Shown here piece by piece: positions 12,192 to 61,362 of a stretch of 64,000 bases of DNA (its first letter is position 1; each line of letters begins with the position of its first letter). A program made the translations under genes and the position numbers. Source of the stretch: Eledone cirrhosa (lineage: Eukaryota); assembly GCA_964016885.1 (NCBI GenBank), contig OZ024751.1, positions 23,312,001-23,376,000 of the forward strand, given 5' to 3'. The notes below the pieces were generated by a model, which saw nothing but the letters and a program-made list of their open reading frames with translations, did not search any database and was not told where the DNA came from.

Positions 12192-12550
12192 AGTAATAAA
12201 CAGGACGAAGTGTTAGATTTTCATTACATTTATTGAGGTGTGATGCGCGTTTCGCGATTGATCAGCTCTAGGCTCGACCTGTATCGAACTGGCCAAACTC
12301 TGGATTCAAAAGCTTGTCCAACGAGCTTTTGATTCCAGTGTCGGGCCAGATCGATAGAGATCGACCTTTGAGCTGATCAATTGAGAAACGCGCGTCACAT
12401 CTCAATAAATGTAATGAAGATCTAACACCTCGTGATTTTTATTATTATTATAATTACTCTGCTTAGTACATCACCAATATACCTACTGGAAAGTACGCAT
12501 CGGGTGCTCACTTTGGAGGAGCCTACAGTAACTGGACGTTACAATCACTA
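12192..12550 (+). mobile_element. Imperfect ~230-bp hairpin element with hammerhead 3' half and tail
   Basis: Arms 12205-12325 / 12331-12433. GAAA CGCGCG TC acatctc AATAAA on the right arm. Confidence 0.75.
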
Positions 12551-13924
12551 CACACACACACACACACACACACATATATATATATACGCACATTTCTCTC
12601 TCTCTCTGGATGTATGTATGTATAAATGTAAGTACAGATATATGTATATGAATGTAAGTATATATATATGTATGCATATAGATATATAGATATGTTTATA
12701 CTTTTATAAAAGAAAGCTTCTGCGTAGGTTGTGTGAAATATATCTCACTAGTTCATCGTTATTTTTGTTGTCGTGTCCTGCATTTTCGCACACACACTAA
12801 AACAAACAAACAAAAAACCCTCCTATTTCAGCAGTTATATCTTTTTCCATGCTTTCTTCTTCAAATCCAACTTTATCGCCGTAGTTTATGTTTTCTGGTG
12901 TAGTACATCATTTTAGCGCGATAACAATTTGTCAGTGGTTTAAATCACTTTTCGATTTAATTTTTAGAATTTAGATTTTTGTAATGTTCATTGCAAGGTG
13001 ATAAAACAGCCGAATTTATGTGAAGCAACTGGTTGCATTAATGCATAAAGAAAGAAACCTGACAAAGCCGTGCTAAAATAGTCTAAAAGATGTATATAAT
13101 CTGTTTTATTACAGATGTAAGTTCAAATGCTTACTAAAGAGATTCTGACGTAACTAAATAAGTTGTTCTATGTAAGTATTCAAAAGAAAATTTAAAGAAA
13201 AGAAAAAGAAACATTGTAGTATTTTGTTGTTAGTCTGGATTATATTTCAGAATAAGTTTGACAAATTCTGTTTTTAAGAGCCAGCGTAGCAAAGGATGCA
13301 TTATTTAGGAAACAATGACATTTTGAGATTTTCGTTGTCGATGACAGTGTGGAAGTAAATGTGAAAAAGTTAGAAGAAAGAAAGGTAAAATGGTATGCTA
13401 CACAAACGAGAAAAGAAACAGATATTCTACCATGTCATTGGAAATATCAATAAGGTAGATACTTATTGAATCGATAGCGAAATGATGAAGACAAACAATG
13501 TAAAGAAATATCAAACGAAGATAACGATAAAAAAATACAATGATATAAAATATGAGAACATTAAACTGATTAGACTAGTAAAGCCTCAACGTTGTCCACC
13601 ACATCAGACTATAAAATGCTGAAATGACTTTAATGAAATATTTCATCAGAATTTTATTAAGTGAAACTATGGTTATGTTAATGACAATGACTAGACATAT
13701 TAAACTTTATTATTGTATTTTTGCCCTATGGGTGTAGCTTTTAAACTAAAGAGAAAATGTGATAAAATCTGTAAAACGTAAATAGCAACAAGAAAGCGAA
13801 AAAGAAAGAAAAGGAAAAGATAAAGAAAAAAAGAAGTTAAGCAACAACGAAATAAATAGGAGGGAGAAGGGAGCGACAGATTTTTCGCTCCAGTCTGGGC
13901 GAAGCTTCGCATATAGAGTTCTTT

Positions 13925-14245
13925 TTCTTCGTCCATTTATTCCTGAGAGGGTCATGGGGTCAGAGTCCTGGAACAAACACTCCTTCCAGTAGGTCCTGTC
14001 AGAAGCAACCGTCTCCAACTGATCCGACTGGATCTCCAAGCGTGACCAGCCAAACTCATGGCTGTTTTCCAACCATCTTGCTCGGGGTCTACCCCTGGGT
14101 CTCCTACCTGTTGGATTTGCCCGTAAAATCTGTCCAGCAATTCTTTCCTGAGACATTCTAACCACTTGCCCATAGTATCAGAGCTTGTGATCTCTCAATT
14201 CGTAGAAGTAGCGGCTCTAGCTGAACTGTCTCTCTGAACTCTGAT
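13925..14245 (-). pseudogene. RTE-clade LINE 3' fragment
   Basis: VVRMSQERIAGQILRANPTGRRPRGRPRARWLE...DRTYWK has the GxRxRGRPRxRW motif typical of RTE C-termini. Confidence 0.85.
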
Positions 14246-59330: not shown

Positions 59331-59513
59331 TAACGAAGGAAATGTGGTAAGGAACCAGGTGGACCATAACGCACCAAAGTACACAATACTTAGGGTAGTA
59401 GAGTGGGTAATAGGAACCAGTAAGACCCCGACGGCTAATTCTGGACTAAAATAGTCCAGAATTAGCCGTCGAAACGGCTTGAGCTCAGCCGTCGGGGTCT
59501 TACTGGTTCCTAT
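59331..59513 (-). mobile_element. TAACGAAGG-family element with a deletion in the left arm
   Basis: Segment between the two gacggct repeats is missing. Confidence 0.88.
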
Positions 59514-61164
59514 ATATATATATATATATATATATATATATATATATATATATATATAAATATATTTATGTATGCATGTATCTATGTATGCATGTATATA
59601 TGAATGTATGTATGAATTTATGTGTGTTGGTATGCTTGAATGTGTGTATGTAAGTTTGTATGTATGTATTTTCGTCAATGTCTACGTGTTTATTGAAGGG
59701 TAATTGTATGATAGGGGAGATAAATATGTAAAGGGTCTTTATATAGACATTTTCTGGTCAAATTCCAACTCTTCGTCAGCTAGATATCTTATTAATCTCA
59801 GTTGTTTGTCAACACTATACATACATCTAACGTAAACAATTAGATCTTTGTATGTGCGTGAGTGTATTTGTGTATGTGTATCTATGTGTATGCCCATATG
59901 CATGTATATATGTATATATGTATGTATTTGTGTACATATGCATATGTGTATGTATGTATTATATGCATGTATGAATGTATTATATCTCACACATATACAC
60001 ACATAAACACACACACATATACACACATACACACATATACATACATAAATATATATATATATATGTATATATATATACACACAAATATACACATATATAT
60101 ATACACACACACACACACAGATATACATACATACACATACGTACATATATATATATATATATATATATATATATATATATATATATATATATATATATAT
60201 ATATAAATATATATATTATATATATATATATATATATATATATATATATATATATATATATATATATATATATATATACATAAATATATATATATTATAT
60301 ATATATATATATATATATATATATATATATATATATATATATTTATACATAAATATATATATATATATATATATATATGGTTGTATACATGCACGAAATG
60401 ATGCGAGAAAAAAACGAACTGAAAACAAACATCATTTCTATGATAAAGAATTCAAGAATATCAGATTAATATTATAACAGTTTAGCCTATGCTGATTATC
60501 TGCAGAATCAGGGAAAGAGGCTTGCCCCCTCACGTATATCAGTATAAATATCTGTTGTCTTTGTAAACAACATATAAATATAGACTTGTATGTGCAACAC
60601 ATGTTATACGTTAATGTCAAGATATAGCAATCACACACACATATACATCTATGTATGTATGTATGTATGTATGTATGTGTGTATGTATGTATGTATGTAT
60701 GTATGTATGTATGTATGTATGTGTGTGTGTGTGTGTATTGATACATATAATGCAAATGTGTATGAATATACTATTAAAATACTCATACAACGACAATTTC
60801 CACACCCAGATAAGTGCAAATCTTTATATATATGTATGTATATATATATGTATGTATATATATATGTATGTATATATATATATATGTTTATATATATATA
60901 TGTATATATATATATATATATGTATATATATATATGTATGTATATATATATATATGTATATATATATTTATATATATGTATGTATATATATATATATATA
61001 TATATATATATATATATATATATACACACACACATATATAGATATATATGTATACACAGGAACATATATATACACACATAATGATATATATAAATATATA
61101 CATATATATATATATATATATATATATATATATATATATATATATATATATATATATATATATA

Positions 61165-61362
61165 TAACGAAGGAAATGTGGTAAGGAACCAGATGGACCA
61201 TAACGCACCAGAGTACTCAATAATTAGGGTAGTAGAGTGGGTAATAGGAAAAAGTATGACCCCGACGGCAGAGCTCAAGCCGTTTCGACGGCTATTTCTG
61301 GATTCCAGAAATAGCCGTCGAAACAGCTTAAGCTCTGCCGTCGGGGTCATACTTTTTCCTAT
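61165..61362 (-). mobile_element. TAACGAAGG-family element (variant)
   Basis: aaaagtatg and ctatttctgga variants are mirrored in both arms. Confidence 0.88.

Follow-up and report, generated by a model that had tools for sequence, protein, structure and literature searches.

What strips the catalytic half of a ribozyme from an insertion that keeps the other half? The question is raised by 64,000 nucleotides (nt) of the Eledone cirrhosa genome (assembly GCA_964016885.1, contig OZ024751.1, forward strand, 23,312,001 to 23,376,000; hereafter the window), in which short head-to-head repeats carry GAAA, helix III, the UH dinucleotide and helix I of a hammerhead without its CUGANGA box. A sequence-only reading had proposed that nascent complementary DNA (cDNA) snaps back on helix II and self-primes, deleting the box and leaving a disarmed insertion. 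Our analysis of one set of these repeats, family A, points elsewhere: these stubs are short insertions of the end repeat (pLTR) of a Hydra-type Penelope-like element (PLE) whose long copies hold a full hammerhead, and the box would be missing because the template RNA likely starts inside loop II, where the reverse transcriptase (RT) runs off its 5' end.

The family A signature TAACGAAGG has 8 matches in the window, against 0.25 expected by chance. Six show GAAA-C-GGCT..AGCC-G-TC-GGGGTC without CTGANGA, with the centre of inversion a few to about 20 nt 5' of GAAA, just as had been noticed; of the remaining two, 35220 consists of a tail alone, and the centre of 28091 coincides with the predicted cut site, which lies 3' of helix III. 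Half motifs of the form GAAA-helix III-UH number 18 on both strands, compared with a mean of 1.4 (maximum 5) in 30 Markov controls, and a search of the window against Rfam gave just low-complexity microRNA matches among the 150 listed of 249. In a family A copy, (TA)n is followed by 80 nt of unique sequence, then by an arm, a centre that varies between copies, the arm in inverted orientation and a second (TA)n run. On its sense strand the arm, AGTCCAGAA(T/A)TAGCCGTC-GAAAC-GGCT-TGAGCTC-AGCC-GTC-GGGGTC..TTCCTAT, reads as the 3' half of a hammerhead. We number from the A of AGTCC as +1, which places the predicted cut between +41 and +42 (GUC|GGGGUC). The family A copies in the window are:

61161..61362, minus strand: stub, tail arm 61161-61302 (sense on minus) head to head with tail-less arm 61304-61362, both from +3 of the pLTR, with (TA)n on both sides.
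3231..3417, minus strand: stub, tail arm from +6, tail-less arm from +16.
27217..27428, minus strand: stub, both arms to +1 (AGTCC), 7-nt filler.
28087..28218, minus strand: stub, both arms ending at the predicted hammerhead cut site (GACCCC 28184-28189, 9-nt filler, GGGGTC 28199-28204).
35216..35301, minus strand: tail-only fragment.
42415..42613, minus strand: stub, tail arm to +1, tail-less arm from +7.
44562..44683, no strand assigned: stub of two tail-less arms, both to +1, with poly-T/A filler.
46183..46383, minus strand: stub, tail arm to +1 with an untemplated-looking C after it, tail-less arm from +5.
59327..59513, minus strand: stub whose tail arm has an internal deletion between CGACGGCT repeats.

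The analysis covered the 3.0-Gb genome that holds the window and, as an unselected regional sample, 464 kb of flanking DNA; the genome-wide counts of junction centres, solo arms, long-arm cores and both kinds of cut-site match are drawn from the first 100 rows listed. Short arms stop at A-G-T 18 nt 5' of GAAA, in loop II. Of the 62 arms in the 464 kb, the end falls exactly 18 nt 5' of GAAA in 11 and between 23 and 50 nt in none, and 5 are long; 20 of the 56 scored arms end within -3 to +3; genome-wide, 27,951 exact arms run through +1. Inversion centres are therefore not random but pile up at fixed points, as the sequence-only reading had anticipated, although the stop lies in loop II rather than in the stem of helix II. 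Solo arms that lie beside (TA)n and have no inverted partner start at the same AGTCC (83 distinct sites among the first 100 listed of 1,262), and hence fold-back is not what removes the catalytic box. The position of the stop is itself awkward for a snap-back on helix II, since a cDNA ending in loop II is without the 5' strand of that helix. A CTGANGA just upstream of a short arm was matched 36 times, and the 20 matches examined were junction products or chimeras.

We consider +1 likely to be a capped polymerase II start. Position +1 falls on the A of TTAGTC in family A, and on that of TTAGTT or TCAGTT in family B, a sister family 51% identical in the endonuclease region, and the 18-nt spacing is kept between loops that are otherwise unlike. 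Both contexts resemble the insect initiator; by eye, positions +28-32 offered no good downstream promoter element. An initiator-type promoter lies in the pLTR of Drosophila Penelope (PMC2377424). A copied cap would leave an extra G, so that C or G at +1 centres fits one: C follows GGACT in 13 of the 50 complete junctions among those listed, and the base before solo arms at the 83 listed sites is G in 17, C in 10, A in 6 and T in 50. This signal is suggestive only, and three observations count against it: 1) G precedes AGTCC in 5,420 of the 27,951 exact arms (19%), near background; 2) the excess of G over C before the listed solo arms is modest (p 0.12); 3) a natural TTCAGTCC variant can explain single C/G centres.

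The parent of the stubs could be traced from two longer copies in the 464 kb, which reach upstream through TACCCC-CTGAGAAG-CTCGGCTATT and a loop of about 35 nt. From its sequence, family A is the pLTR of a 3.55-kb Hydra-type Penelope-like retrotransposon that inserts into (TA)n. The 3.55-kb unit at locus L152 comprises pLTR, tail, 5' untranslated region (UTR), an ATG at +232, RT, GIY-YIG, a 1.1-kb 3' UTR and pLTR, and is thus a partial tandem. Its open reading frame (ORF), broken in two, encodes a YRDD RT core followed by a C-terminal GIY-YIG domain, for which the Pfam match is weak (E 0.013, below cut-off, in 1 of 3 pieces), together with the motifs RWR, SDKTG, CNCPDGSIC (CxCX5C), CNLC-SEE and NKK..CKH. 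Homologues at E<=1e-20 number 203, mostly of about 700 amino acids and almost all unnamed. The ORF with RT and GIY-YIG, the partial pLTR-ORF-pLTR tandem and the inverted, 5'-truncated copies with a one-sided tail are features of endonuclease-bearing PLEs; the RWK-type motif, DKT, the CxCX5C linker, CxxC/CxH beside the E and N, and insertion into (TA)n are those of the Hydra clade, whose members are generally shorter than 3 kb. The tail continues into the 5' UTR at 310 places, some of them perfect tandems of 3,531-3,546 nt, and the 3' ends of arms fall at two fixed points, both at TAT and separated by about 80 nt. At G000:C1:91476610-91487259 and C1:437200351-437210966 the 3.53-3.54-kb element forms perfect tandems of four units, as expected from rolling-circle copying or repeated jumps. 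Pieces of more distant Hydra-like families, with 25-45% protein identity, were seen at L018, L144, L121, L009, L063 and L079. This parentage makes it scarcely credible that the stubs are miniature inverted-repeat (MITE-like) DNA transposons with terminal inverted repeats and TA insertion: inverted arms flanked by TA are what such elements would show, but 70 of 73 short pairs have a single tail, the centres vary, and the stubs are identical with the ends of an element that encodes RT.

Does the parent still hold a ribozyme? The long copies can be folded as TACCC(C)-YTGA-N-AA, a long helix II, GAAA, helix III, GUC and helix I. An unselected search recovered 2,986 long arms, and among the 100 listed, counted by hand, 64 have the core of a type I hammerhead with U3-A8 (TTGA-N-AA), 33 carry the mismatch of C3 with A8 (CTGA-N-AA), 3 are otherwise and none has G8; position 7 in the 64 is G in 37, T in 19, A in 7 and C in 1. 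Copies linked to an ORF and read by script have TTGA in 17 of 19 and CTGA in 2 of 19 (the scoring of their extent halts at a 2-nt loop deletion, and those scored at 25-30 are long arms). In PLE hammerheads, covariation between C3-G8 and U3-A8 has been published (PMC4209133). Between families A and B, 3 of 10 pairs in helix II are changed on both sides, and both-sided changes occur in helix II only. The hammerhead structure pairs 87.8% of cells, compared with 24-53% when it is slid, a difference that, with few independent lineages, is to be taken as support and not as a probability. A hammerhead core under selection shows covariation of positions 3 and 8 while position 7 is left free, and this pattern points to selection on catalysis. 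The expected longer parent with gacccc-CTGANGA upstream was thus found as regards the helix I complement and a box, but the literal box is rare (ACCCC-CTGANGA-..CGGCT has 10 matches, 9 of them in family A) and the usual form is TTGA-N-AA. Two other readings of the box were set aside: a dead parental CTGAGAA (1,278 exact matches) had been selected by the query, and the unselected search gave mostly TTGA-N-AA; and repair of A8 by A-to-I editing finds no A>G excess in 84 long arms (partly box-selected), nor any G8 among the 100 listed.

Two results weigh on the other side. The hammerhead fold lies 1.8-3.2 kcal/mol above the minimum-energy fold in three copies, and about a third of the listed long arms are C3/A8 and predicted inactive, yet 19 matches are 100% identical to such a copy. 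Rfam returned nothing at gathering score in 5 long-copy loci. A C3/A8 sub-lineage (L101-L130) has many 99-100% identical copies and seems recently active without a predicted working ribozyme. The stubs do hold half a ribozyme, as the term disarmed implied, but family A as a whole does not appear simply disarmed, as about two-thirds of the listed long arms have a plausible active core.

A smaller class of arms stops exactly at the predicted cut site, GUC|GGGGUC. Among the matches listed, 36 distinct sites comprise 22 that start exactly at GGGGTC, 3 that are ambiguous and 11 spread over 29 positions, and solo arms number 5 at the single GGGGTC base against 0.38 per base (p about 5e-5). Of 248 cut-site junctions 50 were listed: in 20 both arms end there with non-parental filler between them, 17 ambiguous ones lack filler, 2 are half clear and 11 extend further. 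Among the single-base centres listed, 11 of 12 at the cut site are A or T, but 6 of 7 at +1 are C or G (Fisher p 0.0017). In the 464-kb region 3 of 56 scored arms (2 insertions) end at +42, and 4 of the 7 initially scored there were extra-G artefacts. From these distributions the +42 stubs likely arise when RT runs off RNA already cut by the U3-A8 hammerhead, and would then be a record of cleavage in vivo. Two points tell against this: the 17 junctions without filler could come from the CG microhomology at that place, and the G-run of helix I could itself stall RT. Comparison with two other families does not decide between the readings: in a second hammerhead family about 9 of 41 junctions lie near the cut site and most at the palindromic helix III, and family C, described below, shows none at the site (1 junction, elsewhere). 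Under a rival proposal, +1 and +42 mark structural pausing of RT or microhomology hot spots and not RNA ends, and the ribozyme need not cut in vivo. The G-run, the CG microhomology at +41/+42 and a weak hairpin over +1..+5 in family A agree with it, as does another PLE, for which PMC11167929 reports that RNA reads ending at the cut site are absent and that cleavage is dispensable in vitro. We nevertheless judge it quite improbable, as loop II is wholly different in families A and B, yet AGT and the 18-nt spacing are kept, the untemplated fillers differ in kind between the two stops, and the 3-8 covariation speaks for selection on catalysis.

RNA ends at +1 and +42 would account for where arms stop, and leave the origin of the inverted arm to be explained. 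Of 26 unselected short pairs, the arm extending further 5' is the tail-less one in 13 and the tail arm in 8, with no difference in 5. Of the 22 long loci L131-L152, 7 are solo, tandem or two-tailed; in 11 of the remaining 15 pairs the tail-less arm exceeds its partner, by as much as 3 kb, and the arms abut at the junction. A snap-back copy must nest in its template, and so the longer tail-less arms need two cDNAs or large one-sided deletions. Further, at L047 an arm from another hammerhead family, without a tail, adjoins a family A arm with its tail, the pair lying between two (TA)n runs, and L031 is similar, both loci coming from a search that favours cross-family joins. Many centres among the junctions listed have no loop (AAATTT, AATT, CG), as annealed 3' ends would give. 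Together, the longer tail-less arms and the cross-family joins speak for the head-to-head joining of two cDNAs rather than the folding back of a single one. Another PLE, in the anole, has two RT start points, nicking of both strands and a predicted dimer (PMC11167929).

On the other side, arms share subfamily variants in 61 of 73 pairs, compared with 20% between insertions. Fold-back explains this directly, and the two-cDNA model requires both cDNAs mostly to copy one RNA or one locus. Junctions such as GGACTC-AGAATT also fit a small snap-back, short templated inserts occur, and self-priming has earlier been proposed for PLE palindromes (PMC3846280). A single cDNA that snaps back on helix II and deletes the box is still very unlikely, given the solo arms with the same stop, the tail-less arms that exceed their partners by up to 3 kb, the cross-family joins, and other families that keep a whole ribozyme inside their palindromes; local snap-back during end joining is possible. 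In an intermediate view, RNA ends still set the stops, but a single cDNA is copied as a hairpin to give the inverted arm, and breakage and deletion of the palindrome afterwards reshape its centre. This would explain both the shared variants and the heterogeneous centres, and it is in keeping with the instability of perfect palindromes. We regard it as rather improbable: in most long pairs the tail arm alone would have to have lost 1-3 kb by deletion, L047 cannot be made in this way, and pairs in which both arms stop exactly at +1, or both exactly at +42, with filler between them are frequent.

The joining of two cDNAs at RNA ends, which we prefer, can be put as a sequence of putative steps: 1) the element protein would nick both strands of the (TA)n target; 2) two cDNAs would be primed at the two TAT points, mostly on the same RNA; 3) both would run to the 5' end of that RNA; 4) microhomology or a short A/T filler would link their 3' ends, and the product would be a head-to-head repeat with a one-sided tail. 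Ends at +42 would likely come from RNA precut by the U3-A8 hammerhead, and long arms may come from priming in the 3' repeat or from a template jump by the enzyme.

The same arrangement permits a further, on balance unlikely, reading, that the ribozyme is split: the 5' end of the RNA would supply the substrate half (3' strand of helix II, GAAA, helix III, GUC, helix I), completed by a catalytic half at its own 3' end or on another RNA. Both repeats would then be cut at the same GUC, yielding unit-length RNA ready to circularise, and this would explain the perfect 3.53-3.55-kb tandems. The tens of thousands of stubs would be substrate halves cut by the parent or titrating it, and the genome would hold a count of capped versus ribozyme-cut template RNAs.

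Beyond family A, the window contains four arms or palindromes that bear on the generality of these stops:

29510..29617, plus strand: solo arm of family B, starting at AGTTC 18 nt before GAAA, with no inverted partner.
49391..49491, minus strand: decayed arm of family B.
12205..12555, plus strand: palindrome of family C, centre 12318.5, GAAA-CGCGCG-TC at 12385, likely one-sided tail to about 12555.
41580..41764, no strand assigned: palindrome of family D (palindrome 41661-41763, centre 41712, GAAA 41725), likely tail on the left; old, arms 74% complementary.

Family B has the box CTGAGGA in 6 of 10 matches, and the same box is found in a relative from another animal. Families C and D had been cited, with family A, as three unrelated families that each lack the box and have their centre just upstream of GAAA. 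For family C (then given as 12205-12433) the motif GAAA-CGCGCG-TC is indeed present, but the centre is 66 nt upstream; no catalytic box with a helix I complement was seen within about 100 nt upstream in 8 loci, and of 9 matches to a long-form pattern the 6 examined were unrelated; family C is a candidate ribozyme half. For family D (41661-41764) the centre does lie near GAAA, but the motif quoted for it is a composite (ACC-GAA from the right arm, ACCG-TA from the left), though it occurs whole in relatives; two pattern searches for a box with helix I complement in this old, small family gave no match. In L172 the start of family D is an AGT placed 18 nt 5' of GAAA, which is the spacing of family A and makes the claim of three unrelated families doubtful.

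Nor does loss of the box extend to palindromes in general, the selection having been one-sided: three further window palindromes, 3431-3695, 48970-49373 and 58688-59143, keep a complete CTGANGA...GAAA hammerhead, the centre lying 95 nt upstream of the box in 48970-49373 and 128 nt upstream in 58688-59143. The last, with 50083-50373, belongs to a PLE-like family with the complete minimal hammerhead ACTGC-CTGAAGA..GAAA-TATATA-TA-GCAGT, one copy of which is a 99% perfect 456-nt palindrome with a tail; at 50083-50373 the right arm skips the ribozyme and resumes approximately at the cut site through CAGT microhomology. The palindromic 48970-49373 and 12000-12185 represent a family with the complete minimal hammerhead CTGATGA..GAAA-TATATA-TA. 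The palindrome at 3431-3695 and a copy at 36652 are of a family with a minimal hammerhead and a TGCGCA helix III, which has 13 full motifs in the 464 kb and joins most of its short junctions through that palindromic helix. A very frequent SINE-like (short interspersed element) repeat of about 150 nt, GGCCAGCAATTACCCAG..., is present at 61540-61700 and many other places.

In terms of known systems, the element type and the insertion form of family A are already described. The Hydra clade of PLEs with C-terminal endonuclease, including Hydra-1_Obim, combines the motif set, the (TA)n target and a pLTR hammerhead (PMC8557442), and family A shares with it RWR (RWK-like), DKT, the CxCX5C linker, CxxC/CxH around E and N, the C-terminal GIY-YIG, (TA)n and the pLTR hammerhead. 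It differs in its 3.55 kb against generally less than 3 kb, its 1.1-kb 3' UTR, its long monomer-type helices II and III and its U3-A8 core; Hydra-1_Obim, an octopus element compared here by description rather than by sequence, is listed at 2,507 bp without pLTR (PMC8557442). The standard PLE insertion (PMC8557442; PMC3846280; PMC2377424) likewise has the head-to-head repeat, a tail on one arm and partial tandems, with a tail of 30-40 nt versus about 80 nt in family A, which adds tens of thousands of pLTR-only stubs, two sharp 5' stops and cross-family joins. In the open-access full text consulted, a start inside loop II, cut-site stubs and evidence for two cDNAs were not found in print. The hammerhead of the Schistosoma PLE Cercyon (PMC4209133) resembles that of family A in its U3-A8 covariation, short helix I, long helix II and palindromic loop 3; in family A, unlike Cercyon, helix III has 5-6 bp and the likely start site lies in loop II. 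The green anole element PAc Poseidon (PMC11167929) also has two internal RT start points that define the tail and AT-rich nicking of both strands; reads at its cut site were not found, whereas genomic copies of family A pile up at the predicted one.

What PLE hammerheads do is called still unclear in PMC8557442, and PMC4209133 gives no in vivo evidence; their cutting in vivo and the origin of inverted, tailed insertions are open questions in this literature (PMC8557442, PMC11167929, PMC4209133). Family A offers hundreds of stubs at the predicted cut site and thousands at the likely start site inside the ribozyme, together with non-nested and cross-family arms that discriminate fold-back from two-cDNA joining, and both questions are testable from genome sequence and a 120-nt RNA. 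Finally, the non-LTR retrozymes (10.64898/2026.07.22.740005) are, like the stubs, non-coding, PLE-derived hammerhead repeats. As described there, they are tandem units without an ORF, each with a complete hammerhead, whereas each stub is one inverted pair holding half a ribozyme, and is probably made anew from the RNA of the autonomous element at every insertion.

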